Part shown: in pieces, positions 3,476 through 17,844 of the stretch | Layout: every line of letters begins with the position of its first letter | Numbering within the stretch: position 1 is the stretch's first letter | Source: a virus | Lineage: Duplodnaviria; Heunggongvirae; Uroviricota; Caudoviricetes | DNA length: 17,844 nucleotides | Reading direction: 5' to 3' (one strand) | Virus record (IMG/VR): IMGVR_UViG_2547132253_000001 | Notes under the pieces: generated by a model | Databases searched by the model: none | What the model was told of the DNA's origin: nothing | Seen by the model: only the letters and a program-made list of their open reading frames with translations | Position numbers and translations under genes: made by a program

Positions 3476-3679
3476 ATGGCTAATTACAATTCATTAATTC
3501 GTCTCTCTGAAGTTCAAAGGCGAACTGGTTATAGCAAAGCATGGATTTATCGTCTTATTAGTCAGGGGAGGTTCCCTAAACAGGTAAAAATTGGAAGTCG
3601 GGCAATTGCTTTTGTTGAGTCTGAAATAGATGAATGGATTGAGAAGTGTATATTAGAATCTAGAGACGAGGTGGCCTGA
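3476..3679 (+). CDS. alpA: AlpA-family phage transcriptional regulator (HTH), 67 aa
   Basis: ATG 3476 to TGA 3677-3679; sequence LIRLSEVQRRTGYSKAWIYRLISQGRFPKQVKIGSRAIAFVESEIDEWI fits the AlpA/MerR-like HTH pattern; stop overlaps the next ATG (TGATG). Confidence 0.85.
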   Translation: MANYNSLIRLSEVQRRTGYSKAWIYRLISQGRFPKQVKIGSRAIAFVESEIDEWIEKCILESRDEVA

Positions 3680-4122: not shown

Positions 4123-4956
4123 ATGAACATCGAAAAAAGCAGATTAATTTCTGAGGCCGCCCCTCATCTGAACGCCTCTCTGGGCACAATTAACGGTAAT
4201 GAATTTGCCGCAATTGTCCCGGTTATTCCTGGTCATATCGGTGGGCGTGAAACCAATATTGTTAGCGCAAAAGCGTTACACAAAGCGTTGGGCGTGGGAA
4301 AAGACTTCTCTACATGGATCACTGATCGCATCTCTGAATATGACTTCACCATTGGGCACGATTACTCAGTCCATAAAACAATTTCCCCAAATTTGGGGAA
4401 AAGCCCGAATGGCGCGGCTTACAGCAAGATTAAGCAGTCTGGCAGACCCGGCAAAGACTATCTGTTAAGTGTCGGAATGGCGAAAGAACTGGCAATGATC
4501 GAACGCAATGATCAGGGTCGCGCTATCCGCCGTTATTTCATCCAGTGCGAGGAAGAATTACAGCGTAGCGTGCCTGAAATCGCCGCCCGCTATCGTCGCC
4601 AGCTAAAAGCCCGTATCAGTGCCGCAAACAACTTTAAGCCAATGTGCGATGCGCTGAATATGGCCCGTGCCGAGATGGGTAAAACGACGCAGCAACACCA
4701 CTACACAAACGAGAGCAATATGATTTCTCGTATCGTTCTTGGTGGGCTAACTGCTAAACAGTGGGCGCGGATAAATGGCTATTCTGGCGAACCTCGCGAC
4801 CATATGAACGCAGAACAACTTGAGCACCTCTCATATCTCGAAAGCACCAATATCACGTTAATTGATATGGGCATGGAATATGAGCAGCGCAAAGGAGAAC
4901 TCACCCGCCTGTCGCAACGCTGGCTCGCCAAGCGTCTGGAGGTGGTCAATGTCTAA
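4123..4956 (+). CDS. Phage antirepressor-like protein (AntA/AntB-type N-terminal domain), 277 aa
   Basis: ATG 4123 with GGAGA SD; N-terminal region NIVSAKALHKALGVGKDFSTWITDRI and following LLSVGMAKELAMIERNDQGRAIRRYFIQCEEEL resemble the AntA/KilAC antirepressor pattern as I recall it. Confidence 0.65.
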   Translation: MNIEKSRLISEAAPHLNASLGTINGNEFAAIVPVIPGHIGGRETNIVSAKALHKALGVGKDFSTWITDRISEYDFTIGHDYSVHKTISPNLGKSPNGAAYSKIKQSGRPGKDYLLSVGMAKELAMIERNDQGRAIRRYFIQCEEELQRSVPEIAARYRRQLKARISAANNFKPMCDALNMARAEMGKTTQQHHYTNESNMISRIVLGGLTAKQWARINGYSGEPRDHMNAEQLEHLSYLESTNITLIDMGMEYEQRKGELTRLSQRWLAKRLEVVNV

Positions 4957-5131
4957 GCCAACAGGAACACCACAACCACAAAAACGCTACAAAGATGCCC
5001 ACGGAGCACTCGTTACTGTCGAAAGCGTGTCTCACAACCGAGTGACGTTTTATCGCGACGGGTATCAATCGCCATGCGTACAACCGCTGGCGCGTTTCAT
5101 GAAGGAGTTCGCGGAGGTTAACAAATGCTAA
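4949..5131 (+). CDS. Small hypothetical protein, 60 aa (DUF4222-like by recollection)
   Basis: ATG at 4949 overlaps the stop of the upstream gene (ATGTCTAA); this is the in-frame C-terminal part of track ORF 4862-5131; sequence MSKPTGTPQPQKRYKDAHGALVTVESVSHNRVTFYRDGY. Confidence 0.5.
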   Translation: MSKPTGTPQPQKRYKDAHGALVTVESVSHNRVTFYRDGYQSPCVQPLARFMKEFAEVNKC

Positions 5132-5562
5132 CCGTCCAGAAGAAGACATTTTCACTGGCTGGTATGTCGCCAAAATCCAGCAATATGACGGCAAAGTCAG
5201 GCATTAATACAGCAGATACAAGCAAAGTTTATCATTTGCTGTTGGTCGGAACGGATGCCTTAACCATATCAGAAATCTCGGGCGATGATATTAGCATTGA
5301 GAAGGTCAGCGGCTGCGCCAGAAAATTTCTGGTCGTAGATGATGTCTTCCGCTCGTGTAGTGACTCCACAAAAACATTCGTCCACGCGCGTGACGTTAAC
5401 GAAATGAGCGCGATGTACTGTGCATCTGGTGCTTCCAATAGCGAGTTTTCGGAGTCCATAAAAAAGAGCTTGCCGTTATGCGGCAACACGGTTTATGGTT
5501 ATAAGGCACCTCATAAAACGGGTGCCGGGATTGGCGTCCTGGTAAATCGAATGGCGACATAT

Positions 5563-5584
5563 GACGCGCCGAGCGTCTTTTTTT
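5563..5584 (+). terminator. Rho-independent terminator
   Basis: GACGC-GCCGA-GCGTC hairpin (5563-5577) followed by TTTTTTT (5578-5584). Confidence 0.6.
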
Positions 5585-5611
5585 ATGTCGTAGGTCTGAC
5601 TCACCCATTTT

Positions 5612-5636
5612 TTGGGCGTTGGTGTATAATCCAGCG
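5612..5636 (+). promoter_or_regulatory. Putative sigma70 promoter (perfect -10 TATAAT at 5625-5630; no good -35)
   Basis: TATAAT hexamer 5625-5630 immediately after the terminator and about 150 nt upstream of the Icd-like start; the -35 element is weak or mis-spaced (TTGGGC at 5612-5617). Confidence 0.3.
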
Positions 5637-5639
5637 CCT

Positions 5640-5786
5640 TTGTCAATCAATGGTGGCTCAGGCAGGGGCTTCTTCGGAAGCGCCGGTATCCATTCGAGCC
5701 GGTTACGCCAACCCTGTCTGGGCTACCACCAGCGAAATTGGCGTTTCCGGTGGTAGCGTTACATGCTATCGAATGGAGGCTGCCAC
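5640..5786 (+). ncRNA. Candidate structured leader / small regulatory RNA (P4 CI- or C4-like immunity RNA hypothesis)
   Basis: GCUUC-UUCG-GAAGC tetraloop hairpin (5668-5681); 9-bp stem GCTACCACC (5722-5730) pairing with GGTGGTAGC (5749-5757); an upstream GGTGG (5652-5656) could pair alternatively with CCACC; no coding frame supported here. Confidence 0.3.
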
Positions 5787-5981
5787 ATGCTGGCTACTAC
5801 CCCTACCCAAAAACCGCAATTTATCTGGATTATCGCCGCAGTTCGCCGCGATTGCCCGACAATTACCGCCAAAATTCATCATATTGCTGCCGAGTCTGAA
5901 CGCGATGCTCGCCGTTCTCTGGTGCGCGATCACGTCTGCTTTTTTGCTGGTCGTATCCGCATGGAGGTGGCTCATGATTAA
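5787..5981 (+). CDS. Icd-like host cell division inhibitor family protein, 64 aa
   Basis: ATG 5787 with GGAGG at 5775-5779; MLATTPTQKPQFIWIIAAVRRDCPTITAKIHH... resembles the Icd-like small proteins of P4-like prophages (recollection). Lies in a different frame inside the artifactual 355-aa track ORF. Confidence 0.65.
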   Translation: MLATTPTQKPQFIWIIAAVRRDCPTITAKIHHIAAESERDARRSLVRDHVCFFAGRIRMEVAHD

Positions 5982-6192
5982 AACCTACGATGTGCATATG
6001 GATCCCCTCGAACGCACAAGCCAGATCATCACACTGACAGAAGTGATTAACGACATTCTGGTGAGCAACTCTCCCTCACGAGACGAAAGACTGAAGGCGT
6101 TACTCGCGATATTGGATCTCGCCGTTCGTGACGTTCATTTCCTGCTGGAAGGTGGCGAAATGCCAGGAAAAACGGGGGCAACCAATGAATAA
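5974..6192 (+). CDS. Hypothetical small protein, 72 aa
   Basis: ATG 5974 preceded by GGAGGTGG (5963-5970); overlaps the Icd-like stop (ATGATTAA); C-terminal in-frame part of track ORF 5125-6192. Confidence 0.55.
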   Translation: MIKTYDVHMDPLERTSQIITLTEVINDILVSNSPSRDERLKALLAILDLAVRDVHFLLEGGEMPGKTGATNE

Positions 6193-6379
6193 CTCAATTA
6201 ATACCCCTCGCCTTACGTCCGCACTTCAATTAATCGAGCAAGCAGCGGCTGTCCTGGTTGCTGTCAGTCTTTCGGCTGAAGAAATGGACGCTGCTGATGT
6301 CGTGGATGCGATTAAAGCGTGCTCATCTTTGGTTAACGATGCCCGTGCCGAGCTGGTAATTCTTGGGGGTGAAAAATGA
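6185..6379 (+). CDS. Hypothetical small protein, 64 aa
   Basis: ATG 6185 overlaps the upstream stop (ATGAATAA); in-frame part of track ORF 6128-6379. Confidence 0.5.
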   Translation: MNNSINTPRLTSALQLIEQAAAVLVAVSLSAEEMDAADVVDAIKACSSLVNDARAELVILGGEK

Positions 6380-6639
6380 ATATCAACTTAATTTATCGTC
6401 ATCCGTGTGAGCTGGAAATTGAATCATTGCTGGGGCGTGAAGAGCCATATCCAGACACATTCACTCCCGCAGATTGCGCGACTGAACGGCTTACCAGAGC
6501 GCGCACAGGTCTGGTTCATGTGATGAATGAGATTGTTCCCTCGGTGGGAGGGGAACAGGCGACAGTAATCAATAGCTGGCTACAAAAAGTTACCTCCCTG
6601 ATAGATATCGGTTTAATCGATGTGGAGAGTGCGAAATGA
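6376..6639 (+). CDS. Hypothetical small protein, 87 aa
   Basis: ATG 6376 overlaps the upstream stop (ATGA); SD GGGGTGA upstream. Confidence 0.55.
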   Translation: MNINLIYRHPCELEIESLLGREEPYPDTFTPADCATERLTRARTGLVHVMNEIVPSVGGEQATVINSWLQKVTSLIDIGLIDVESAK

Positions 6640-6857
6640 CCAACATCCAGCTCATTGAAGCGCAATGTCGCATCGAACAGGTTCAGACTGTTTTAGGGTT
6701 CTGGCTTGAAGGGGCCAGCCCCAGCAACAGAGACAAGTTAATGATTGGCGCGGTTATGTCACTGCTCAATGGCGTACCAGAAGCTATTCAGGAAGCGGAC
6801 GAATTGTTGGGCAAATATGAGTTACAGAATCATTCAGGCGAGGCGAAACATGAATAA
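6636..6857 (+). CDS. Hypothetical small protein, 73 aa
   Basis: ATG 6636 overlaps the upstream stop (ATGA); part of the coupled operon leading to the primase. Confidence 0.55.
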   Translation: MTNIQLIEAQCRIEQVQTVLGFWLEGASPSNRDKLMIGAVMSLLNGVPEAIQEADELLGKYELQNHSGEAKHE

Positions 6858-7452
6858 TTTCTTAACCTTCCATGCAGAAGCAACGCCTGACGGCGTAAAC
6901 ATCATGCACCGCAGCAACGATGGCATGACAGAACGCGTTGAGACCGTCTCATATATTGATGCCGTAAATCGTCTGGATGCCGGGGATTATGACGATAAAC
7001 CAGATGAAGGCATGTTTATACATCTCGCTATTGCCAGTGGCGGCAACCAGGGATATTTCGATTACACATCACAGCATCACGTGATTATGTGGCGCTGGCT
7101 GATAGCAACAGCATTCATCAATGAAATGAGAAAGGAAAACGGCACCGTCAGCATTATTGATGACAGTGGCAATCATTCCGTGGTTTCTGTTTATTCCAAT
7201 GGCATCGTCGCCATGCCGCTGTATCCAGTAGCAGAGCGCCTCGCTATGGCAAACAACATTGAGGGCGCAATGATCGAGAAATATGGTGTTGATGTCGGAA
7301 CAAAGAATGCCATCATTTTTTACAGCAACATGTTCGATGTCGAACAGGGAACACTCACTTCGTTTGGGCGAGAAGTGCTTGCCGATCTTCACAACAGCTT
7401 TATTGCCGAACTAAACGAAAACGGCATCCCAGAAGCACCAGTGACGCACTAA
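6850..7452 (+). CDS. Hypothetical protein, 200 aa
   Basis: ATG 6850 overlaps the upstream stop (ATGAATAA); the track ORF 6745-7452 is extended upstream, but the internal ATG with coupling is the more plausible start; immediately precedes the primase. Confidence 0.6.
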   Translation: MNNFLTFHAEATPDGVNIMHRSNDGMTERVETVSYIDAVNRLDAGDYDDKPDEGMFIHLAIASGGNQGYFDYTSQHHVIMWRWLIATAFINEMRKENGTVSIIDDSGNHSVVSVYSNGIVAMPLYPVAERLAMANNIEGAMIEKYGVDVGTKNAIIFYSNMFDVEQGTLTSFGREVLADLHNSFIAELNENGIPEAPVTH

Positions 7453-7464
7453 ACGGGGGCCAGA

Positions 7465-10221
7465 ATGCGAAACATTGATCTTATCCGTCAGGTTATCAGT
7501 GCGTCTGAAAACAACTGGCCTCATGTGCTGGGCTGTCTGAACATAAATGTCCCTGACTCTCCTCGCCGTCATGCTCCCTGCCCTGCATGTGGGGGCAAAG
7601 ATCGATTCCGGTTCGACGACAACGGGCGCGGTAGCTTCATCTGTAATCAGTGCGGCGCTGGTGATGGGCTGGATTTAATTAAACGCGTAAATAACTGCGA
7701 CACAACAGAGGCGGCGCTTCTTGCCGCTGATGTTCTGGGTATTGATTACCGGACAACGGAAACACCAGAAGCCACCAGCCAGAAACGGGAACAACTGGAA
7801 ACCGAGCGCCAGCGACGCGAACAGGAGCGCCTGAAAAGGGCAGAGAAGGACGAACAACAAAGACGGGATACGTTTTCCCGTCAGTTTGATGACATGCGCA
7901 GAAAGGCTGTAAACGGCAAATCTGATTATCTGGTTGCGAAAGGGGTAGGTGATTTTACATTCCCAGTGTTGCCCGATGGATCTCTGTTGCTGGCGCTGGT
8001 GGATAAATCCGGCGCAGTCACAGCAGCACAGACTATTACCTCACATGGTGAAAAAAGACTCCTGACAGGTTCAGCAAAGCGAGGGGCATATCACGCCATA
8101 AACGCACCAGAAACAACACAGAGCATCTTAATCGCAGAAGGGCTGGCAACGGCATTATCTGCCCATTTAATTCGTCCAGAATCGCTGACAGTGGCGGCGA
8201 TTGATGCCGGGAACCTGTTATATGTCGCCCAGGTACTGCGGGATAAATTTCCTTCAGCACAAATCATCATTGCTGCGGATAACGACCACAGCGAAGGAAG
8301 ACAAAACACGGGGAGAATAGCAGCAGAAAAAGCAGCTTTATCTGTTTCTGGATGGGTGGCATTACCCCCGACAGATCACAAAGCAGACTGGAATGATTAC
8401 CACCAAAAACACGGCATTAAATGCGCCACAGAAGCGTTCAATAAGTCAATGTACCAACCACAGGGTAATGGCGTGAAACAGCAGCCACAGACCATTGAGG
8501 GAAGCGATTTTAAGGTTATGGATACCGACCCACTGAAACCAAGAATAGAAAGCCGCGAGGATGGTATTTATTGGGTATCTCCGAGAGCTGACAGCCAGAG
8601 TGGAGAAATCATCAATAACGAAAGCTGGTTATGTTCTCCGTTAAGCGTTATCGGTACTGGCAGAGACGATAAAGACCAGTATCTCATTCTTCGCTGGCTG
8701 TCGTTTGGTTCTGAAACGCCGACAACCGCTGCCATTCCACTGGCTGATATTGGTGAACGTGAAGGATGGCGCACACTTAAAGCTGGTGGGGTAAATGTCA
8801 CGACCAAAAGCAGCCTCAGAGCAATACTGGCAGACTGGCTACAACGCAGTGGCTCTCGTGAATTGTGGCGTGTTGCTCATGCCACTGGCTGGCAATGCGG
8901 AGCGTACATCATGCCTGATGGGGAAATCATCGGAACACCTGAAAATCCTGTGCTGTTCAGCGGGAGAAGCTCAGCCGCAGCCGGATATACCGTCTCAGGG
9001 AGCGCGAAAAGCTGGCGTGATAACGTGGCGCGTCTGGCCTTTGGTAACTATTCAATGATGACCGGGATCGGCGCAGCACTGGCAGCGCCATTGATTGGGC
9101 TGGTGGGCGCTGACGGGTTCGGCATTCATTTCTATGAGCAGTCGAGCGCAGGTAAGACCACCACGGCAAACGTGGCGAGCAGCTTATACGGCAACCCTGA
9201 TTTACTGCGGCTGACGTGGTACGGAACCGCGCTGGGGCTGGCAAATGAAGCCGCCGCCCACAATGACGGACTAATGCCGCTTGATGAAGTTGGTCAGGGC
9301 GCTGATCCTGTCAGTGTTTCACAGTCTGCCTATGCGTTATTTAACGGTGTAGGGAAACTGCAAGGCGCTAAAGATGGTGGAAACCGGGATCTAAAACGCT
9401 GGCGTACAGTGGCAATCAGCACTGGAGAAATGGATTTAGAAACATTTATCGCTACTTCCGGGCGAAAAACCAAAGCCGGGCAACTGGTGCGACTGCTGAA
9501 TATTCCGTTGAGTAAAGCAGTACGCTTTCACGATTACCAGAACGGAAAACAGCACGCAGACGCACTGAAAGACGCTTACCAGCATCACCACGGCGCAGCC
9601 GGGCGTGAGTGGATTAAATGGCTGGCAGACCACCAGCAACAGGCTATTAAAACTGTTCGTGACTGCGAAAGCAGATGGAGAAGCCTGATTCCATCCGATT
9701 ATGGTGAGCAGGTTCACCGTGTAGCCGCGCGATTTGCCATTCTGGAGGCCGCATTGCTGTTAGGCGAGGTTGTAACAGGCTGGGATGCTCAGACATGCCG
9801 TGATGCGATACAGCACAGCTATAACGCATGGTTGCGCGAGTTCGGCACAGGTAACAAAGAACATCAGCAGATTATTGAACAAACGGAGGCATTTCTTAAT
9901 GCCTATGGGCTTAGCCGTTTTGCACCATTTCCATACAGCCCGGCAGATTTGCCAATCAAAGATTTAGCCGGATACCGTCAGCGTGGAGAACATGACGAAA
10001 GCCCAATGATTTTCTACACATTCCCGGCCACATTTGAAAAGGAGATCGCATGTGGTTTCAACGCAAAACAGTTTGCTGAAGTGTTGAAAAAAGCCGGGAT
10101 GCTAACCCCACCAAACAGCGGTCGTGGATACCAAAGAAAATCACCACGTATTCAGGGACGACAAATAAACGTTTATGTACTCAATTACCAGCCAGGAGAT
10201 TACAACTCATCTGAAGAATGA
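7465..10221 (+). CDS. P4 alpha-like replication protein: zinc-finger/TOPRIM primase fused to a P-loop (D5/DUF927-like) helicase, 918 aa
   Basis: ATG 7465 with GGGGG SD; N-terminal zinc motif CPACGGKDRF...FICNQCG; TOPRIM-like acidic motif IIIAADNDHSEGR; P-loop FYEQSSAGKTTTANV in the C-terminal half; followed directly by iterons. Confidence 0.9.
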   Translation: MRNIDLIRQVISASENNWPHVLGCLNINVPDSPRRHAPCPACGGKDRFRFDDNGRGSFICNQCGAGDGLDLIKRVNNCDTTEAALLAADVLGIDYRTTETPEATSQKREQLETERQRREQERLKRAEKDEQQRRDTFSRQFDDMRRKAVNGKSDYLVAKGVGDFTFPVLPDGSLLLALVDKSGAVTAAQTITSHGEKRLLTGSAKRGAYHAINAPETTQSILIAEGLATALSAHLIRPESLTVAAIDAGNLLYVAQVLRDKFPSAQIIIAADNDHSEGRQNTGRIAAEKAALSVSGWVALPPTDHKADWNDYHQKHGIKCATEAFNKSMYQPQGNGVKQQPQTIEGSDFKVMDTDPLKPRIESREDGIYWVSPRADSQSGEIINNESWLCSPLSVIGTGRDDKDQYLILRWLSFGSETPTTAAIPLADIGEREGWRTLKAGGVNVTTKSSLRAILADWLQRSGSRELWRVAHATGWQCGAYIMPDGEIIGTPENPVLFSGRSSAAAGYTVSGSAKSWRDNVARLAFGNYSMMTGIGAALAAPLIGLVGADGFGIHFYEQSSAGKTTTANVASSLYGNPDLLRLTWYGTALGLANEAAAHNDGLMPLDEVGQGADPVSVSQSAYALFNGVGKLQGAKDGGNRDLKRWRTVAISTGEMDLETFIATSGRKTKAGQLVRLLNIPLSKAVRFHDYQNGKQHADALKDAYQHHHGAAGREWIKWLADHQQQAIKTVRDCESRWRSLIPSDYGEQVHRVAARFAILEAALLLGEVVTGWDAQTCRDAIQHSYNAWLREFGTGNKEHQQIIEQTEAFLNAYGLSRFAPFPYSPADLPIKDLAGYRQRGEHDESPMIFYTFPATFEKEIACGFNAKQFAEVLKKAGMLTPPNSGRGYQRKSPRIQGRQINVYVLNYQPGDYNSSEE

Positions 10222-10243
10222 GCTTCTTCATGTGCGTAGAAAA

Positions 10244-10360
10244 GGTGTTGGTTCAGTTGGTTCAGTTGGTTCAATTTGTAAAGAGTATTGTTTTATAAGG
10301 ATTTTATTCTTTTTATTGAACCAACACTGAACCAACAACACGGTATTTTGAACCAACACA
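10244..10360. repeat. Origin-like iteron cluster (ori): 3 tandem GTTGGTTCA, about 43-bp AT-rich spacer, 3 inverted TGAACCAAC
   Basis: GTTGGTTCA at 10247-10255, 10256-10264, 10265-10273; AT-rich 10274-10316; TGAACCAAC at 10317-10325, 10328-10336, 10349-10357; 22 bp downstream of the primase stop. Confidence 0.7.
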
Positions 10361-10678
10361 ATGTGACTGAATTGATGCGCACAACACCTGGCTGGCATCA
10401 GAGAGTGTTTTACGAGACTTTCGTAAAATCCTGTGTACAAGGGCGTGACGTTTTTGAAAGTGAGCACTACGAAATTTTCGTAGTTCAAAAAACAGCCTTT
10501 GAGAAGTTGTTATGCCTGTTCAGCAAACCATCCGCATAGCTGATCGCGAATCAAATTACCAATGGAGCCAGAAGCAAGGGCAGAACTGGAAAGCGCCTGC
10601 CGTGAAGAGTAATGCGACACCATAAATATAGTTTTTAGAGTCCATAAAAAACCTGTCAAAACCTGACATACAGAACGA

Positions 10679-10710
10679 TGCCACCAGCTACTGAGCGGTG
10701 GCATTTTTTT
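10679..10710 (+). terminator. Rho-independent terminator separating the replication module from the cargo operon
   Basis: TGCCACC...GGTGGCA stem (10679-10703) followed by TTTTTTT (10704-10710). Confidence 0.55.
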
Positions 10711-10805
10711 GTGCTATTTGTTTCATATTTTGCAATTACGATGATGAATATTGCGATTTGTGAAACTATAATAACTGTTGTTTTATACAGTTCTAAGGGG
10801 GCGTT

Positions 10806-10979
10806 ATGGCTATTTCAGTAAAGCCAGTATTGATAAGTGAGAAGCAAATGGAAGCGATAAAGAAAATTCAGGAGGAGCAGCGTAAAAAATCAGAGGTAGG
10901 AGTTGCGCCAACGATCCACGAAATTGCTCGGGGATTAATGGATAAGGCGCTGGCTTACACTTTAACTGGACGTGGGTAA
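10806..10979 (+). CDS. Small protein, 57 aa, possible ribbon-helix-helix DNA-binding protein; first gene of the cargo operon
   Basis: ATG 10806 preceded by strong SD AAGGGGG (10795-10801) and a TATAAT at 10767-10772; below the 60-aa cutoff of the ORF track; sequence MAISVKPVLISEKQMEAIKKIQEEQRKKSEVGVAPTIHEIARGLMDKALAYTLTGRG. Confidence 0.45.
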   Translation: MAISVKPVLISEKQMEAIKKIQEEQRKKSEVGVAPTIHEIARGLMDKALAYTLTGRG

Positions 10980-10983
10980 ATCA

Positions 10984-12450
10984 ATGGCTACGTGGCAACA
11001 GGGTATTAATTCTGGTGGTTTTCTGGCTGGCATCGGTACGCAAAATGAGAATGCGCCAAAGGCAAGCGACATTAACGCAACGCTTGGTCTGATCCGCGAA
11101 AACAATGAACTGGCTCGCTCAGGTGCAAATAACGTTGGTCTGACCGCGTTACGTGGTCTGGCTGGAGTTGCTGATATTTATAAGCAGCAGCAACAGCAGG
11201 AGCGTAAAGCGGCATTCCAGAAAGGTTATGCAGATGCTTATGCGTCCGGCGACAGGGAGCAGATGCGTAATCTTATTACAGCATTCCCAGAAGAGTTTGA
11301 GGAAGTCCGTAAAGGGATGAGTTATGTCGATGATGCTCAAAGGGATGATTATGGCAATCTGGCGCTCAAAGCACAGGTAGCCTCATCGCTTGGTCCGGGC
11401 GCATTTGGCAGGTTCATGATGGATAATGAGCAGGAGATGCGTCGTTTAGGTATCCCTCCAGAAACTATTGCTGAAATGCAGGTTAATGACCCGCAGGGCT
11501 TCCAGCATTTCGCAGGTAATCTGGCGCTGTTTTCTCTCGGTCATGAGAAGTATTTCGATATCAAAGATCAAATGGAAGGTCGGGATATTGAGCGCGGCGA
11601 GTTGGCAGAGACAATCCGCAGCAATCAGGCTGGCGAAGCACTTCAGGCGAGAGGGCAGGATATTAGCCGAGCAAATGCGTTAACGTCAGCATATGCACCA
11701 ACAGCAGCAATGCAGAATTACAATCAGTACGCTCAAATGTTAAAGGCGGATCCAGAGGGGGCGGCGGCATTTGCGGCAGCGGCTGGAATTAATACAAACG
11801 CCAAAAAATTAATGAGTGTTAGGGAAAACGATGATGGCACTGTCACAAAATACTACACAGACGGAAGTGAAGAGCAGGGAAAACTAAACCAGCCAATATC
11901 TGGAGATGGGTTTCGTCCAATAGCTTTGCCAACAGCTCAAAAGATCATGGAAAAGTCGCCAGAAGGGGCTAAAAAAGCTGCTGGATTTGCATACAGAGTT
12001 AGGGATGCTCTTGATTCAATGGATACACTGAAAGGCCAGATTAGCCCACAGCGAGTGGCGATCATTAATAATGCTTTGGGTAATGGGACGCTGGCTAACT
12101 TAACGCTCAGCCCAACAGAGCAGCAATACGTTGTTAATGCTAATGACGCAATAATGGCAATACTCCGTCAGGAAACAGGGGCAGCTATCGTACCTGCTGA
12201 AATGTCAAAATATTATCAAATGTATTTCCCTCAGCCTGGTGATTCCACAAAAACCATTGATACCAAGCGCCGGAAGATGGAAAACCAGTTCAATTCGCTG
12301 AAAGCTGCTTCTGGTCGAGCTTATGATGCTTTGCAGGTTATTTCAGCAGTTGACAGAGGAACTTCTTCTTCGTCGCAGACATTGCCGCAATCTGAGCAGG
12401 TATCACAGCCAGCAGCCAGCAGTAACTTTTCTTCACTATGGGGTGATTAA
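10984..12450 (+). CDS. Uncharacterized Ala/Gln/Gly-rich protein, 488 aa (cargo gene 1)
   Basis: Long ORF; ATG at 10984 (MATWQQ) preferred over the track GTG at 10972; low-complexity composition (QQQQQ run, AAAFAAAAG), few aromatics, no catalytic or NTP-binding motif I can see; stop overlaps the next start. Confidence 0.7.
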   Translation: MATWQQGINSGGFLAGIGTQNENAPKASDINATLGLIRENNELARSGANNVGLTALRGLAGVADIYKQQQQQERKAAFQKGYADAYASGDREQMRNLITAFPEEFEEVRKGMSYVDDAQRDDYGNLALKAQVASSLGPGAFGRFMMDNEQEMRRLGIPPETIAEMQVNDPQGFQHFAGNLALFSLGHEKYFDIKDQMEGRDIERGELAETIRSNQAGEALQARGQDISRANALTSAYAPTAAMQNYNQYAQMLKADPEGAAAFAAAAGINTNAKKLMSVRENDDGTVTKYYTDGSEEQGKLNQPISGDGFRPIALPTAQKIMEKSPEGAKKAAGFAYRVRDALDSMDTLKGQISPQRVAIINNALGNGTLANLTLSPTEQQYVVNANDAIMAILRQETGAAIVPAEMSKYYQMYFPQPGDSTKTIDTKRRKMENQFNSLKAASGRAYDALQVISAVDRGTSSSSQTLPQSEQVSQPAASSNFSSLWGD

Positions 12451-13427
12451 TGGCTAAAGCATGGAAAGATGTTATCGCCTCTCCACAGTATCAGGCGTTA
12501 GCACCAGAACAAAAAGCGCAGGCTCAGGAGCAATACTTCAACGAAGTCGTTGCCCCGCAAGCCGGAGAAAGTGTAGAGCAGGCTAAGCAGGCTTTTTATG
12601 CTGCCTATCCACTACCATCAACGAATGAAATAGACCGAGCCCAATCAGCAACTCAAAATATTCAACATACATCATCTGATAATTCTCTTGCGTCAGGGTA
12701 TGCAAAGTTAGCGACTCAGCAAAGAGAGGGGCTTGAACGTTCAGCAGAACAGGGAGCCAGTCTTGGGGCTGCGATGCGCGATGCTATAACAGGCGAAAGC
12801 CGAATGACTCCAGAGATGGAGAGACTGCAAAATGTCGACCTTGCCCCAGAGTTAACCTCACTCAGCATGGATGCTCTAAAAGCTCGATGGTCTCAACTTT
12901 TCGGCTCTGACGCATCTCAGGAAAAGATTCTTCAGAGCATGGGAGCGAAATTAAGGCAGGATGAGAAGGGTAACACTATCGTTTCCCTACCATCCGGTGA
13001 TTATGCTCTGAACAAGCCGGGTTTATCACCGCAAGACGTGGCATCGTTTCTGGCTAATGCGCTGGCGTTTACACCAGCGGGCAGGGCCGGAACGGTGCTG
13101 GGGGCCATAGGGAAATCAGCAGCTACAGATTTAGCACTACAGGGAGCCACCAGCCTCGCTGGTGGAGAAGATATTGATCCGTTACAAACGGTAATCTCTG
13201 CTGGCATTGGCGGCATTGGTAAGGGTCTGGAGAATACAGTGAGTGCCGTTTCGAGGGCCGTTCGCGGTGATATGGCACCGGAAGCGAAAGCCGCTGTTGA
13301 TTTTGCATCGGAAAGAAACCTACCGTTAATGACCAGTGACGTACTGAAAGATAAAAACACTGTGCAGAGTCTGGCCCAGAAAACAGGCGAAAAAATTCCT
13401 TTTTTGGAACGGGTACGAACAGGCTGA
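12450..13427 (+). CDS. Uncharacterized Ala/Gly/Ser-rich protein, 325 aa (cargo gene 2); possibly the N-terminal part of a frameshifted fusion with gene 3
   Basis: ATG 12450 overlapping the gene 1 stop (TAATG), SD-like GGGG upstream; glycine-rich stretches (VLGAIGKSAATDLALQGATSLAGG, ISAGIGGIGKG); ends 22 nt after a T_TTT_TTG heptamer. Confidence 0.65.
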   Translation: MAKAWKDVIASPQYQALAPEQKAQAQEQYFNEVVAPQAGESVEQAKQAFYAAYPLPSTNEIDRAQSATQNIQHTSSDNSLASGYAKLATQQREGLERSAEQGASLGAAMRDAITGESRMTPEMERLQNVDLAPELTSLSMDALKARWSQLFGSDASQEKILQSMGAKLRQDEKGNTIVSLPSGDYALNKPGLSPQDVASFLANALAFTPAGRAGTVLGAIGKSAATDLALQGATSLAGGEDIDPLQTVISAGIGGIGKGLENTVSAVSRAVRGDMAPEAKAAVDFASERNLPLMTSDVLKDKNTVQSLAQKTGEKIPFLERVRTG

Positions 13428-13576
13428 ATCAACAACAGGCTCGGGAAAATCTGGTCAGAACATATAACGATGGTCTGGGAGGCATTTCAGATAAACAGCT
13501 TTATGAGTCTGCTACTAAAGGGCAGCAAAAATTCATTGAGGCCGCAGGTAAGCGATATAACCGCATAATTGACGCT

Positions 13577-14554
13577 ATGGGGGATACCCCTGTCGACCTA
13601 TCAAACACGGTAAAAGCTATCGACAATCAGATTGCCGTGTTAAGCCGCCCGGGCAAATCTCAGGATAGAGCCGCGGTAAAAGTCTTGCAGCAATTTAAAG
13701 ACGATATCACCAGCGGACCCAATGACCTGCGTCTGGCGAGAGAAAACAGAACTGACCTTCGAAAGCGGTTCATGAATTCAAACGAGACTGTTGATAAAGA
13801 CACGCTCCAGAAAGCCAGCGATATTGTCTACAAGGCATATACGCTGGATATGAGAAGGGCAGTAGCCCAGAAACTGGGTTCAGAAGAAGCAGCCAATATG
13901 GCAAGGGTTGATCGCTCATGGTCTAAATTCAATGACATGATGGGAAGAACGCGCGTTCAAAAGGCAATAGCCAGCGGCAAGGCCACGCCTGAGGATGTAA
14001 CAAAACTCGTGTTTAGCCAAAGCCCATCAGAACGTTCTCAGCTTTACAGGCTTCTGGATGACAATGGTAGGCAAAACGCACGAGCAGCCATAGTTCAGAA
14101 TGCTGTAGATAAGGCGACTGATCCGTCTGGAAATATCAGTGTTGAGAAGTTTATTAATGCGTTACACCGGAACAGGAAGCAATCAGCAACTTTCTTTAAA
14201 GGCGTGCACGGAAAGGAACTGGACGGCATTATTAAATACCTCAACGATACCAGACAGGCGGCAAAGGTTGACGGTCAGAAATTAAACAGCCAGAAACTTT
14301 ATGGCCTGCTGGTTGGTGGAGGCGCTATAAATGCGGCAGTTCTGGCGGGGATGCTGAAAACGGCTGCGTTTGTTGTTCCTGCTGCTGGTGCTTTAGGCGG
14401 AGCAGCGAAGGCATACGAAAGCCCTGTTATACGAAATGCCTTATTACGTCTGGCAAATACGCCAAAAGGTAGCACAGCATATGACAGAGCGATCAGTACA
14501 GTCACACAATCACTGACCACAGCAGCACAAGCATCGCAAAAGGAAGCTCAATAA
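13577..14554 (+). CDS. Uncharacterized protein, 325 aa as annotated (cargo gene 3), with C-terminal glycine-zipper hydrophobic hairpin; reading frame is open upstream to 13355
   Basis: First ATG at 13577 has no SD; the same frame is open and protein-like from 13355 with no ATG/GTG/TTG in between; hydrophobic Gly/Ala-rich segments LYGLLVGGGAINAAVLAGML and AAFVVPAAGALGGAA near the C-terminus. Confidence 0.6.
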   Translation: MGDTPVDLSNTVKAIDNQIAVLSRPGKSQDRAAVKVLQQFKDDITSGPNDLRLARENRTDLRKRFMNSNETVDKDTLQKASDIVYKAYTLDMRRAVAQKLGSEEAANMARVDRSWSKFNDMMGRTRVQKAIASGKATPEDVTKLVFSQSPSERSQLYRLLDDNGRQNARAAIVQNAVDKATDPSGNISVEKFINALHRNRKQSATFFKGVHGKELDGIIKYLNDTRQAAKVDGQKLNSQKLYGLLVGGGAINAAVLAGMLKTAAFVVPAAGALGGAAKAYESPVIRNALLRLANTPKGSTAYDRAISTVTQSLTTAAQASQKEAQ

Positions 14555-14613
14555 CAGATGACCATGGATGGTTGGCTATAATAGTAATTAGTTTTTTCAA
14601 ATAGTTATGAACA

Positions 14614-15012
14614 TTAACACTTGCCTTTAACATTGCCGACAAATGAGCCTGTAAATGAGCCTATATCAGATCGACTAATTGTTCGTGTATGGATCACTTT
14701 TCCGTCATTTGAGATTGCCCATGTGACAAGCGTCAGTTGACCATCTCGATAGCTTCTTCCCATCATGGCATTCGGAGATAGCGGGTAATAATCAATACCT
14801 CCACCTATACCATCTTTTGCCAAGATAAGATCCGCCTTCTCTTTACTTATTACCAAATGAAAGGTATCTGGTATAGATGATAACTTATAGTTATACCCAT
14901 CTGAACTTGAGGCTTCTTGTCCTTTCAGATCACCAATAATCCAGCATTCAGCGTTCGCTCCAAAAGAAGCAAATAATAAACCGGAGACAACCAATCGCTT
15001 CAATTGATTCAC
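14614..15012 (-). CDS. Small secreted/periplasmic protein of unknown function, 132 aa precursor with Sec signal peptide
   Basis: GTG start (complement of 15010-15012) preceded on the minus strand by strong SD AAGGGAGGG; N-terminus MNQLKRLVVSGLLFASFGANA then E (positively charged n-region, hydrophobic core, A-x-A cleavage motif); the longer 218-aa track ORF 14614-15270 is an upstream extension lacking an SD. Confidence 0.6.
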   Translation of the reverse strand: MNQLKRLVVSGLLFASFGANAECWIIGDLKGQEASSSDGYNYKLSSIPDTFHLVISKEKADLILAKDGIGGGIDYYPLSPNAMMGRSYRDGQLTLVTWAISNDGKVIHTRTISRSDIGSFTGSFVGNVKGKC

Positions 15013-15204
15013 ACCAACCCTCCCTTTAGCGTTGTTTAGAATGGCAATCATCATATATCCAAGACATGGCATTTGGTACATAGCTTGGGTCGGGATTTCA
15101 AATCCGCCCCCGTTGATGGGGTCGTTACAGTACGCGCATATCCGCTTTATGTGAAACAGGAAGATTTTTCTGATATCACTGCCACAGCAAAACACCAATT
15201 TCGA

Positions 15205-15505
15205 GACAAGTACGCGCGCGAGGGGTATCAGTTGCAAAAAGTTTTGCAACTGCGTCCGACCAGTACGCACACAATGGAGGGGAGTACCATGAAACTGTTC
15301 TCTACACGAGACAGAGTGGTGGTGATGTGTTGATTATCGGCGTATATGCGCACAGGACGCGCTATGACGATGTTTTATGCGGGTACACCATCACATGTAT
15401 CTGGTGTGATAAATCGCGTTACATGACCTCTCATGTTGTGCTGGTGGTTATCACGACTTTCTGAATCTGGCCTTTGCCTGATATTTTGCGACAAGTACGC
15501 GCGCG
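15205..15505. repeat. Two copies of a 16-bp perfect direct repeat GACAAGTACGCGCGCG (15205-15220 and 15490-15505), with a related inverted partial copy between them
   Basis: Identical 16-mers 285 bp apart with similar left flanks (TTTCGA / TTTTGC); alternating CG core; related GTACGCGCATAT at 15130-15141 and its near-complement ATATGCGCAC at 15345-15354. Confidence 0.5.
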
Positions 15506-15656
15506 TAGCATCGAAATTATCGGATGGCGTATGCTGCTGGCAATATGAAGACCGATAGTATTAACCGAAAAGCGATTAAGGAGTGCCAACTTTTCAGTAG
15601 AGAAACTAGCCAGCATAGGAAAATGTAGAAATTACCCAATTAATAGGTAAAAGTTA

Positions 15657-15774
15657 TTGACACAGCCTGTAGTGGATAACGATATGAATAAAAACCACAT
15701 ATAGTGGTTTTTCGTGAGTGATGATAGTACCTATGTTAGTTTCCTAAGTAACTGTGCATTGACATGTGGATAAC
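15657..15774 (+). promoter_or_regulatory. Two TTGACA hexamers each followed by a DnaA-box-like GTGGATAAC motif, upstream of the Abi gene
   Basis: TTGACA 15657-15662 followed by AGTGGATAAC 15671-15680; TTGACA 15759-15764 followed by TGTGGATAAC 15765-15774 (TGTGGATAA is the reverse complement of the DnaA box TTATCCACA); palindrome AAAAACCAC-ATATA-GTGGTTTTT at 15690-15712. Confidence 0.35.
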
Positions 15775-15884
15775 TTCGGATAGAGTTACACTCAACTGAG
15801 CCCGGCCCCCTGGCTTTATCTTGTCTTAGATGAGAAATTGTTATGGCCGGGCCTTCTTGTATCTGGAGGTAGGAAACCTTTTGT

Positions 15885-16754
15885 ATGGCTGTTCCGGTTA
15901 AGGTTCATAAAGAATATGATGAACTTGTCGATTTATTGCTGTCTCGGGGTATGGATGTGCCAGATCGCGAACATGCTATCAAGAAAATCTCACAAGTAGG
16001 CTACTACCGATTATCAGGCTTTTGGTACCCCTGCCGAATCCCCCATATAACAACAGACAATATTAGAACCAGACTCGATCAGGTTCGTCCAGGTACTAAT
16101 TTTCGCGCAGTATATGACCTCTATTTATTCGATAAAAATCTGCGTTTGCAGATGATGAATGCGTTAGAACGCATTGAGGTTTATGTTCGGTCAGTTATTG
16201 CTCATGAGCTTGGTAAGATATCTCCTTTAGCATATCTTGATGACTCGCTAATAAATCCAAAACACTTTAGACCACGTTCCCATGGTCGCCCAAGCGCCAG
16301 AGAAGAATGGATAAATAAACATAATGCCGAGATTGCTAAAAGTCGCGAAGACTTTATCAAATGGCATGAAAACAAGTACGAAGGTCTTCCTTTCTGGGTG
16401 GTTATTGAAGTGTGGGACTTCGGCTTAATGTCAAAGTATTATGCGATGCTAAAAGACAGCTATCGCAACAGGATACTATCTAGGCTAGGGATAGCGGCAG
16501 GCAATGGAGCTATCTTCCAAAACTGGCTTAGCGCAATGAATGTGCTAAGGAATCGGTGCGCTCACCATTCACGCATCTGGAACAAGGTCAACGAACCAAG
16601 ATTAATGCCTTTGCCAAATGAGCCGTACTTTGAACAATTAAATATGAATGATGATGCGTACGAAAGAATGTACGGAATGATCGCTGTGTTATGGTTTTTA
16701 GTGAAAAAAATTGGACCGGGATCTGACTGGATAAAAAAGTTGCCAACCTTGTAG
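15885..16754 (+). CDS. Abi_2 family (AbiD/AbiF-like) abortive-infection protein with HEPN-type R-x4-H motif, 289 aa
   Basis: N-terminal EYDELVDLLLSRGMDVPDREHAIKKISQVGYYRLSGFWYP matches the conserved Abi_2 N-terminal pattern as I recall it; LRNRCAHHSRIWN (nt about 16549-16572) carries an R-x4-H HEPN-like motif; ATG 15885, stop TAG 16752-16754. Confidence 0.8.
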   Translation: MAVPVKVHKEYDELVDLLLSRGMDVPDREHAIKKISQVGYYRLSGFWYPCRIPHITTDNIRTRLDQVRPGTNFRAVYDLYLFDKNLRLQMMNALERIEVYVRSVIAHELGKISPLAYLDDSLINPKHFRPRSHGRPSAREEWINKHNAEIAKSREDFIKWHENKYEGLPFWVVIEVWDFGLMSKYYAMLKDSYRNRILSRLGIAAGNGAIFQNWLSAMNVLRNRCAHHSRIWNKVNEPRLMPLPNEPYFEQLNMNDDAYERMYGMIAVLWFLVKKIGPGSDWIKKLPTL

Positions 16755-16847
16755 ATAACAAGCCTAACTTACCAGGATGTAACCTGACAGCCATGGGATT
16801 ACCTGATAATAACGGTTTCCCAAGGCATTTATTTGATATTGAATAAA

Positions 16848-17303
16848 TTATAGCGATGGCGCTGAATGTAGCGCCACTGATAACTTTTCAGCATTGCTTC
16901 CCTGACGCTTCCACGCGCTGTAAATATCTTTATCCCATGCCTTACCAGCTTTTGTTTGATAGCCTGCTTCATTGATCCGTTCAGCTATCACGCGCCCATT
17001 ATCAAATCCCTGTCGGATGGTATCGGCAATGATCTTTATAACTGCCGTTTCGTTATATGGCTTTGGTGGGATGTTCGGCTTTCCGGCAATAAGCGACGCA
17101 GCGGCTTTTTCCATGCGCTCCACCAGCCCAAGCATTCGTGAATCAATAGACTTTTCCGGCTGTCCCAGCTTCATGCGAATCGCATCAACAAGCCAGGAGG
17201 TTTTATCCCCTCCAGAAGCGAGAACAGACCGATTAAACTCATCCTGCAATTCAGATGGGATGCGGAACGCGACCAGATTAGATTTGCTCATTGCAAAGAC
17301 CAT
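16848..17303 (-). CDS. Putative DNA-binding regulator, 151 aa (N-terminal ribbon-helix-helix-like, C-terminal recombinase-type HTH-like segment)
   Basis: Minus-strand ORF convergent with the Abi gene; N-terminus SNLVAFRIPSELQDEFNRSV; C-terminal NGRVIAERINEAGYQTKAGKAWDKDIYSAWKRQ resembles the DNA-binding segment seen in serine-recombinase-associated domains. The start (first or second ATG) is uncertain. Confidence 0.55.
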   Translation of the reverse strand: MVFAMSKSNLVAFRIPSELQDEFNRSVLASGGDKTSWLVDAIRMKLGQPEKSIDSRMLGLVERMEKAAASLIAGKPNIPPKPYNETAVIKIIADTIRQGFDNGRVIAERINEAGYQTKAGKAWDKDIYSAWKRQGSNAEKLSVALHSAPSL

Positions 17304-17400
17304 ATCAGTGAGTAATATCCATACAGTATACCACTGTATAACACTGTTATACGCTCAAATATCAGCCAGAAAATAACGGACCAATCACAAAGCTATCGCT

Positions 17401-17529
17401 GTGTTGTTGGTTCAGAGCTGGGCTGTGTTGGTTCAAAATGAGTTGATGTTGGTTCAATATTTTAGAAAAAACACAATAAAAACAACGATCTTTACAAATT
17501 GAACCAACTGAACCAACTGAACCAACACC
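17401..17529. repeat. Second iteron cluster (crr-like), inverted relative to the ori cluster
   Basis: GTTGGTTCA at 17405-17413, 17427-17435, 17448-17456; AT-rich spacer; tandem TGAACCAAC x3 at 17500-17526; 17489-17529 is the exact reverse complement of 10244-10284 (41 bp). Confidence 0.7.
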
Positions 17530-17562
17530 TTTTTGCTTATCTATATAATCTGAGAGGCAGAA

Positions 17563-17844
17563 ATGATAAGGGACAGGAAAGCTGAAGAGCTGGAGTCAAA
17601 AGGGCTATACCGGAGAGCTGCCGCACGATGGATGGAAGTCATGCTGTTATGCACCGAGGACGATGATCGGGAATGGATAAAGCGCCGCCGTGAAACGTGT
17701 CTGGAGAACGTGAAGCGCCCGCCCGTGAAGGTTGAGGAATTTGGCGACCTGCATAAAGCTGTTACCGAAACGCAACACCGCATGGGGATAGCGCAACCGA
17801 ACGGTAACGCCTTCCGGTTAAATGGCGGCAAGAGGCAAAGGTAG
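17563..17844 (+). CDS. PerC-family-like small transcriptional regulator, 93 aa (family assignment tentative)
   Basis: ATG 17563 to TAG 17842-17844; MIRDRKAEELESKGLYRRAAARWMEV... resembles the PerC/Pch N-terminal motif as I recall it; SD-like GAGAGG upstream. Confidence 0.5.
   Translation: MIRDRKAEELESKGLYRRAAARWMEVMLLCTEDDDREWIKRRRETCLENVKRPPVKVEEFGDLHKAVTETQHRMGIAQPNGNAFRLNGGKRQR

Follow-up and report, generated by a model that had tools for sequence, protein, structure and literature searches.

Two mirrored iteron clusters in a phage-inducible chromosomal island

The 17,844-nucleotide stretch analysed here in full, hereafter the window (IMG/VR record IMGVR_UViG_2547132253_000001, filed as a virus of the Caudoviricetes), is on sequence grounds an EcCIMP1-like phage-inducible chromosomal island (PICI) of E. 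coli at thrW. It carries two clusters of short repeats, A and B, in mirrored orientation. Cluster A adjoins the gene of the island's primase-helicase and cluster B precedes the gene of a PerC-family regulator. The features needed for the argument are these.

7465 to 10221, plus strand: primase-helicase gene, 918 amino acids, Zn-ribbon/Toprim/DUF927
9907 to 10218, plus strand: predicted C-terminal winged-helix domain of the primase-helicase, about residues 815-918
10240 to 10360, no strand assigned: cluster A, putative origin module adjoining the primase gene, iterons and AT-rich spacer
10247 to 10273, minus strand: tandem iterons of cluster A, three copies of GTTGGTTCA starting at 10247, 10256 and 10265, with 9-bp phasing
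10274 to 10316: AT-rich spacer of cluster A, 43 bp, 83.7% AT
10317, 10328 and 10349, plus strand: spaced iterons of cluster A, TGAACCAAC, with 11- and 21-bp spacing
10387 to 10396, plus strand: central motif CCTGGCTGGC, the final stretch of collinearity with compact origins, just after which the cargo starts
10398 to 17405: interval between the modules, 7 kb
17406 to 17533, no strand assigned: cluster B, mirrored second module, iterons and AT-rich spacer
17406, 17427 and 17448, minus strand: spaced iterons of cluster B, GTTGGTTCA, with 21-bp spacing (21 and 21)
17457 to 17499: AT-rich spacer of cluster B, 43 bp, 81.4% AT
17500 to 17526, plus strand: tandem iterons of cluster B, three copies of TGAACCAAC starting at 17500, 17509 and 17518
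17527 to 17552, plus strand: conserved right flank of the origin, ACCTTTTTGCTTATCTATATAATC, directly upstream of PerC
17563 to 17844, plus strand: PerC-family regulator gene, directly downstream of cluster B (Pfam PerC, E 4e-30)

An earlier reading of the letters alone, the sequence-only reading, had noticed that 10244-10284 is the exact reverse complement of 17489-17529, and that the same 9-mer builds both clusters around AT-rich spacers in a mirrored layout. Both observations hold. The 41-bp match is exact and belongs to a perfect inverted repeat of 45 bp (10240-10284 / 17489-17533), 4 bp longer than first described; a repeat search extended the arms to 55 nt at 95% and gave another arm of 38 nt at 82%, and a global alignment of cluster A (121 nt) with the reverse complement of cluster B (130 nt) gave 101 matching positions. 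Each cluster consists of three plus three iterons in opposite orientations around a 43-bp spacer, and the AT content of the spacers (83.7% and 81.4%) compares with 52.3% for the whole window. All 12 exact copies of TGAACCAAC in the window fall within the clusters (10247-10357 and 17406-17526), against a composition-based expectation of 0.14. When one mismatch was allowed, 17 matches were found versus 3.9 ± 2.2 in shuffled sequences, none of the 200 shuffles reaching 17. The first iteron of cluster A begins 26 bp past the primase-helicase stop codon (10221).

The right flank at 17527-17552 may be a promoter or an unwinding element. A consensus promoter scan returned nothing at this flank or at either cluster, a terminator scan found none at either cluster and one terminator-like site at 10687-10702, and searches for DnaA boxes and the IHF consensus gave no match near either cluster. 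We also considered the clusters as RNA and discarded the idea, as Rfam at a permissive threshold returned just weak plant-miRNA hairpin matches (E >= 0.07) that reflect the palindrome. Beside cluster B, between it and the start of a 151-amino-acid open reading frame (ORF) at 17303, there is an inverted repeat, ATACAGT-N5-ACTGTAT (17321-17339), with a further ACTGT half-site at 17343, which is probably an operator; relatives carry GTAAGACAG direct repeats at this place.

Iterons co-vary with the wing of the primase-helicase

Relatives were collected with a primase scan of one genome per species, which gave 77 loci, almost all from Enterobacterales, and the DNA 3′ of each primase stop codon was subjected to k-mer analysis; the E-values and counts given here hold for the collections named rather than for all of sequence space. 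In about 60 related loci, iterons follow right after the primase stop codon in the layout of cluster A. The iteron itself differs between lineages (GAACCAAC, GAGACAAC, TAACCCGT, GAACCGAC, TACCCGAC, TAACCCAC and TTATCCCA), but it is always identical in both modules of a locus.

In the primase-helicase, Pfam recognises Zn_Ribbon_Prim, Toprim_3 and DUF927 domains. Residues 7-361, the N-terminal primase part only, are 33% identical to the alpha protein of phage P4, and residues 401-813 match by sequence the Rep protein of Staphylococcus aureus pathogenicity islands (SaPIs; structure 8tch, E 1e-11). Sequence and structural model together describe a putative self-loading Rep-type helicase with a C-terminal winged-helix domain, which in SaPI Rep is the domain that binds the iterons (PMC9371898). 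The iteron type co-varies, across at least seven types in the aligned relatives, with a short segment of this predicted domain: QRKSPRI, residues 890-897, which the model places in a beta-hairpin after the helix 867-876, that is, in the wing. Proteins with GRGYQRKS-PRIxGRQ accompany GAACCAAC and proteins with GRGYQGRV--REDGRQ accompany GAGACAAC, while outside the QRKS-PRI versus QGRV--RE difference they are 84-95% identical over residues 341-840; other versions of the wing accompany other iteron types. Initiator and iteron therefore appear, in silico, to form cognate pairs.

Conservation of the second cluster points the same way. Across 13 elements from at least nine genera, the iterons of cluster B, their 21-bp phasing and a 'tttacaaa' motif in the spacer are invariant or nearly so, and the bases between iterons drift. 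Of the E. coli records that carry both this primase and cluster A, 43 were sampled and all had a second match, and cluster B was present in all six E. coli loci retrieved. It is chiefly from this conservation, together with the covariation, that both clusters are predicted to be functional binding sites for the island's own initiator. The 9-mers are exact and phased, flank AT-rich spacers and co-vary with the C-terminal wing, and the sequence comparison supports regarding them as true iterons. It is very probable, on the same comparison, that both clusters are arrays bound by the cognate initiator and that A is the origin of the island.

Compact and split origins

Why does the island carry the array twice? 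In about 30 loci, modules A and B abut and make up a compact origin of about 300 bp, in the order tandem iterons, AT-rich spacer, spaced iterons, central CTGGCTGG, spaced iterons, spacer, tandem iterons and ACnTTTTGCTTATATATA; this last block lies 3′ of the outer tandem triple in the compact origins of all iteron types. In 11 loci, the modules are 0.6-9 kb apart, and the E. coli spacings are 1.9, 7.2, 7.5, 7.5, 8.4 and 8.5 kb, the last being that of EcCIMP1. The sequence-only reading had proposed to ask whether the interval between the clusters is what varies among relatives, which is the case, with lengths from 0 to 9 kb. It had also suggested that the cargo was acquired next to the origin; the cargo is instead flanked by two modules, which in many relatives are joined in a single compact origin.

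The place where the two layouts diverge is precise. Collinearity with the compact origins stops right after the central motif in the window and in four other loci (L060, L061, L035 and L038). The motif CTGGCTGG(CAG) occupies the centre of the compact origin in five iteron types (L004, L009, L016, L022, L045 and L047 are among its carriers) and is loosely recognisable in a sixth, and so it appears to be independent of initiator specificity; it could be a priming site or a site for a host factor. Similar copies occur elsewhere in one sibling island, L002.

The E. coli elements share the order primase, A, small ORF, ejection genes, variable genes, 151-amino-acid ORF on the minus strand, B and PerC. 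In elements of the Pantoea/Chimaeribacter type, PerC is directly 3′ of A and B is found beyond the 151-amino-acid ORF, whereas in compact-origin elements PerC, where present, follows the whole origin. B and PerC are linked in all E. coli elements examined and in the compact-origin relatives. The flexible position of B fits a site that works independently of distance.

Searches of phage and plasmid databases returned few records, of which two are circular forms of such islands: L087 (NZ_CP148430.1, 12,152 bp), with A and B 1.9 kb apart, and L088 (CP031370.2, from Klebsiella, 19,229 bp), with a compact origin. Both were deposited as circular 'plasmids' and are PICIs of the EcCIMP1-like family (int, AntA, primase, PerC), probably in excised or episomal form. 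They fit replication by both layouts, though an assembled circle could be the product of excision.

One further locus, L034 from Yersinia pekkanenii, has three origin-like iteron arrays in about 6 kb, at -5.7, -1.1 and +0.05 kb from the primase end, together with a protein annotated as an HNH endonuclease that overlaps the primase C-terminus; it may be a tandem or rearranged replicon. To learn whether relatives with a single cluster truly end without B, direct repeats marking attachment (att) sites were sought in 22 loci; L013 alone gave a plausible pair, most elements exceeding the 10-kb flanks.

Inversion and transposition of the interval find little support

A perfect inverted repeat of 45 bp, within arms of about 120 bp whose aligned bases are roughly 80% identical, might allow recombination between the arms to flip the 7-kb block, as the sequence-only reading had envisaged. 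We built a 700-nt chimera in which the primase 3′ end and the left arm of A are fused to the reverse complement of the right end of the cargo, and compared it with 5426 complete E. coli genomes. None of the 551 matching genomes covered this inverted junction to 80% or more, which leaves the proposed inversion by homologous recombination without support. The block has the same orientation in all loci examined and the interval encodes no invertase, so that an invertible segment seems very improbable. The island in L084 (NZ_CP027307.1, 10194-14215) is a degraded thrW element with IS1203 copies, in which the PerC end and its iteron cluster are inverted relative to the integrase; this rearrangement is a larger event and not a flip between A and B.

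The same inverted repeats bracket a discrete block of genes beside a conserved breakpoint, as would be expected if the cargo had arrived in a transposon-like insertion and they were its terminal repeats. However, the interval holds no transposase and the supposed ends are the island's own iterons, which change with primase specificity and lie adjacent to each other, with no cargo, in about 30 relatives; nor was a block with such repeats seen at unrelated sites with target-site duplications. We therefore rejected this explanation, to which we would give hardly any credence.

A probable SaPI/PICI-type origin with a second module

In the origins published for PICIs and SaPIs, the iterons come directly after rep and form two sets, one on either side of an AT-rich region (PMC6092414). 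Cluster A, as far as sequence can tell, is a standard origin of this type and matches the design of Gram-negative PICI origins (PMC6092414): as in SaPIbov1, SaPI1 and EcCICFT073, the iterons lie directly 3′ of pri-rep, in opposite sets around an AT-rich region, with matched specificity of Rep and iteron (PMC6092414, PMC9371898). The helicase of the window is homologous to SaPI Rep. Unlike these origins, which have been described as one module, the islands studied here possess a second, mirrored module that either abuts the first or stands up to 9 kb off. The arrangement is best described as a PICI origin of the SaPI/PICI-type Rep-ori design that consists of two modules, with genes in the interval between the halves.

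The closest published relative is EcCIMP1, the PICI of E. coli MP1, which has been experimentally induced and transferred by the P22-like phage Kapi1 (PMC11773190). It shares with the window the integration site between proA and thrW, the gene order and the primase, and the MP1 locus is 98.5% identical in DNA to the window over the primase 3′ end and cluster A. Its clusters are 8.5 kb apart, with B upstream of a PerC-like gene; the window differs in having AbiD and in lacking the DUF2824 gene pair of EcCIMP1. By a term search of its text, PMC11773190 neither mentions iterons nor describes an origin.

Phage P4 offers a precedent for two separated iteron sites, which the window also has. According to the annotated P4 record, from which all P4 details are taken, its cis replication region (crr, 4291-4590) adjoins alpha (4636-6969, minus strand) on the downstream side and comprises two direct repeats of 120 bp, in each of which five type-1 repeats, present in both orientations, surround a pyrimidine/AT-rich stretch; the ori iterons (9310-9413) are about 4.7 kb from crr, with the alpha operon in between, and crr is labelled as required in cis for replication. 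The sequence-only reading took the two clusters for equivalents of ori and crr. Its core, iterons at a primary site and at a second one in cis, is for the most part correct, but the P4 details are not: it put ori right after alpha and crr kilobases away, the reverse of the record. The likeness also has limits, as the P4 iteron is TGTTCACC versus TGAACCAAC here, crr is made of direct repeats whereas the window has one mirrored copy as its second site, and the two proteins cannot be aligned over their helicase and origin-binding parts. A P4-like element was accordingly ruled out for the window, which holds a PICI of the EcCIMP1 type with a helicase and origin-binding part similar to SaPI Rep. 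The two-site arrangement of P4, two iteron sites bound by one primase-helicase, is still a reasonable functional analogy.

We propose that the two clusters are origin modules bound by the island's initiator, with B acting positively in cis, and we give this reading a probability of roughly 60%. The primase-helicase would bind both clusters through its C-terminal winged-helix domain. At cluster A, a complete SaPI/PICI-type origin in this proposal, the self-loading helicase would melt the 43-bp AT-rich spacer and load there. Cluster B would be the mirrored second module, which in many relatives abuts A in one origin of about 300 bp. In the lineage of the window, the operon for the ejection proteins, AbiD and a small conserved gene stand between the two. 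B most likely still cooperates in cis with the remote A, much as crr is paired with ori in P4; it might be another place for the helicase to load, or looping through protein might hold it to A. The two modules, being conserved, would also offer fixed flanks for the exchange of cargo. More tentatively, the centre of the origin might be a preferred landing site for gene modules, with the two halves cooperating over 0-9 kb and anchoring swaps of packaging and defence cargo.

Plasmids provide a different model for a second array. In P1 (incC/incA) and F (incB/incC), the origin array has a distant counterpart built from the same iterons, with which the initiator could pair it; these extra arrays are plain direct repeats without an AT-rich spacer and act negatively, and their initiators are of the RepA type, not primase-helicases. 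By this model B would be a negative copy-control site like P1 incA or F incC, restraining replication by titration or handcuffing as long as the initiator is scarce. B has features that such a site would show: it is a further array with these iterons, apart from the module beside the rep gene, it equals A in specificity in every lineage, and its position is flexible, as expected for a site that acts by pairing. However, an incA-type site has direct iterons and no unwinding element of its own, whereas B has inverted sets, its own 43-bp AT-rich spacer and a full origin-like layout; a satellite needs burst replication after induction; and P4, the closest primase-helicase precedent, annotates its second site as required in cis for replication. 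Negative control by B is in our judgement unlikely.

Replicon swapping and orphan copies of cluster B

Two sibling islands, L002 and L083, share with the window the first ~190 primase residues (identical in alignments to P4 alpha) and match it at 98-99% from ~10405 to PerC. Their helicase and origin-binding half is of the DUF5906 type, whose replicon has an iteron of its own, CTGTACCACC, arranged as two inverted clusters that are separated by 1.1 kb and enclose two small ORFs. The two-cluster design thus recurs in an unrelated replicon module. The primase gene is itself mosaic (window 7465-~8040 versus L002 8312-~8880), and this implies that replicon swaps break inside the gene and move helicase, DNA-binding domain and adjoining iterons together.

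These siblings also supply the main evidence against an indispensable B. Beside the DUF5906-type primase of L083 there is an intact orphan cluster B with GAACCAAC, in L002 the orphan has been cut to two iterons by a ~107-bp deletion, and the cluster, though not this primase, is matched in about 150 E. coli genomes; B can therefore persist without its cognate protein. Other observations weigh in the same direction. The second spacer is not AT-rich in most compact origins, and so B may differ in role between lineages. L021 has degenerate inner B-type iterons beside A plus a full distal B, which suggests that a distal B can arise by duplication rather than by splitting. Lastly, 11 related loci, among them Klebsiella CP180445 and CP180447 and Leclercia L032 and L039, show no B within 10 kb, though these elements probably run farther.

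The orphans fit B also overlapping regulatory DNA of the PerC region, and the question arises whether B has any role in replication. It might be a relic, an old origin half or a duplicate, kept because it overlaps the divergent promoter/operator of PerC and the minus-strand gene. In E. coli it always closely precedes PerC and has the conserved ...TTGCTTATCTATATAAT flank at its side, which agrees with this, as do the intact copy next to a non-cognate DUF5906 primase and the partly deleted one. Nevertheless, over at least seven specificities the iterons of B change in step with those of A and with the wing of the protein, the iteron columns are invariant across genera while neighbouring bases drift, and B is conserved in the Pantoea/Chimaeribacter-type elements though it is not beside PerC there. 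A relic or purely regulatory B consequently seems improbable to us, and we retain the proposal that B assists A in cis.

The island and the cargo between the modules

The remaining genes are as follows.

Window start: proA
After proA, adjoining int: tRNA-Thr(CGT)
1610 to 2824: P4-type integrase
3476 to 3679: AlpA
4123 to 4956: AntA-family antirepressor
5125 to 6192: Ash-family ORF
10806 to 10979: small ORF
10972 to 12450: ejection protein, P22 gp16 family (Pfam Inj_translocase, phrog_917)
12450 to 14554: DNA-transfer protein, frameshifted (genes 12450-13427 and 13577-14554; phrog_770)
14614 to 15270, minus strand: ORF
15885 to 16754: AbiD/Abi_2 (Pfam Abi_2, PADLOC AbiD)
16848 to 17303, minus strand: conserved 151-amino-acid ORF

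The assignment to the PICIs follows from gene content: int, alpA and pri-rep appear in this order at a specific att site, and capsid and lysis genes are absent from the predicted genes. Induction by a helper is predicted for this copy from its near-identical relative EcCIMP1, which was induced experimentally. The type of primase and origin described here occurs in 364 of the 5426 complete E. coli genomes.

The cargo varies in content among E. coli relatives. Pfam and PHROGs identify what the sequence-only reading had taken for a novel operon and a secreted protein as genes for P22-like ejection and DNA-transfer proteins. Ejection genes are common to the E. coli elements examined, except the 12-kb episome, from which they are absent. 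In the window, a 1-bp deletion at 13399, in a run of T (T7 to T6), splits the gene for the 701-amino-acid DNA-transfer/injection protein, which is intact in L001, the two copies showing 2 differences over 2106 bp; the frameshift could be real, involve slippage or be a sequencing error. PICI homologues of P22-like ejection proteins (gp16 family, DNA-transfer and, in some, DUF2824) are encoded at 10806-14554 of the window and at 15695-20863 of L085. Such proteins are normally virion cargo of the helper-type phage (PMC11773190), and the satellite may bring ejection proteins of its own or disturb those of its helper.

Further elements of the island deserve mention. Within the Ash-family ORF, Rfam reports two matches at gathering score, isrK at 5506-5583 (67 bits) and C4 antisense RNA at 5646-5733 (79.5 bits), a combination that, at the level of sequence, suggests RNA-based immunity of the P1/P4 style for this PICI. 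The region at 5370-5465, ahead of isrK/C4, shares a motif of about 70 nt (…GCGTGACGTT…GAAAGTGAGC…, plus AGTTTTnnGAGTCCATAAAAAA) with 10425-10494 and 10630-10651, in the stretch that separates cluster A from the ejection-protein operon; the motif could be a shared promoter/operator or a site targeted by RNA. The Chi octamer GCTGGTGG occurs at 12 sites in the 17.8 kb (for instance 1835, 7995, 8782, 9099, 13158 and 15440), about 20 times the random expectation and about 3 times the usual density in E. coli.

Implications

EcCIMP1-like islands are common and carry defence genes and PerC-like regulators, and the single experimental study of them (PMC11773190), as far as its text was searched, describes no origin. 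A two-part origin with cargo between its halves would locate the variable region of these islands and would explain how replicon modules and cargo are exchanged independently of each other. The covariation of the wing segment with the iterons, in turn, predicts the residues that set origin specificity. To our knowledge, how a primase-helicase makes use of a distant second site has been an open question for the P4 crr since the 1980s. The islands, with spacings of 0, 1.9, 7 and 8.5 kb and orphan copies of B, constitute a natural test set for the use of a distant site by a self-loading primase-helicase. If the centre of the origin does act as a landing site for gene modules, they would form a natural series that leads from a compact origin to a P4-style ori plus distant crr.

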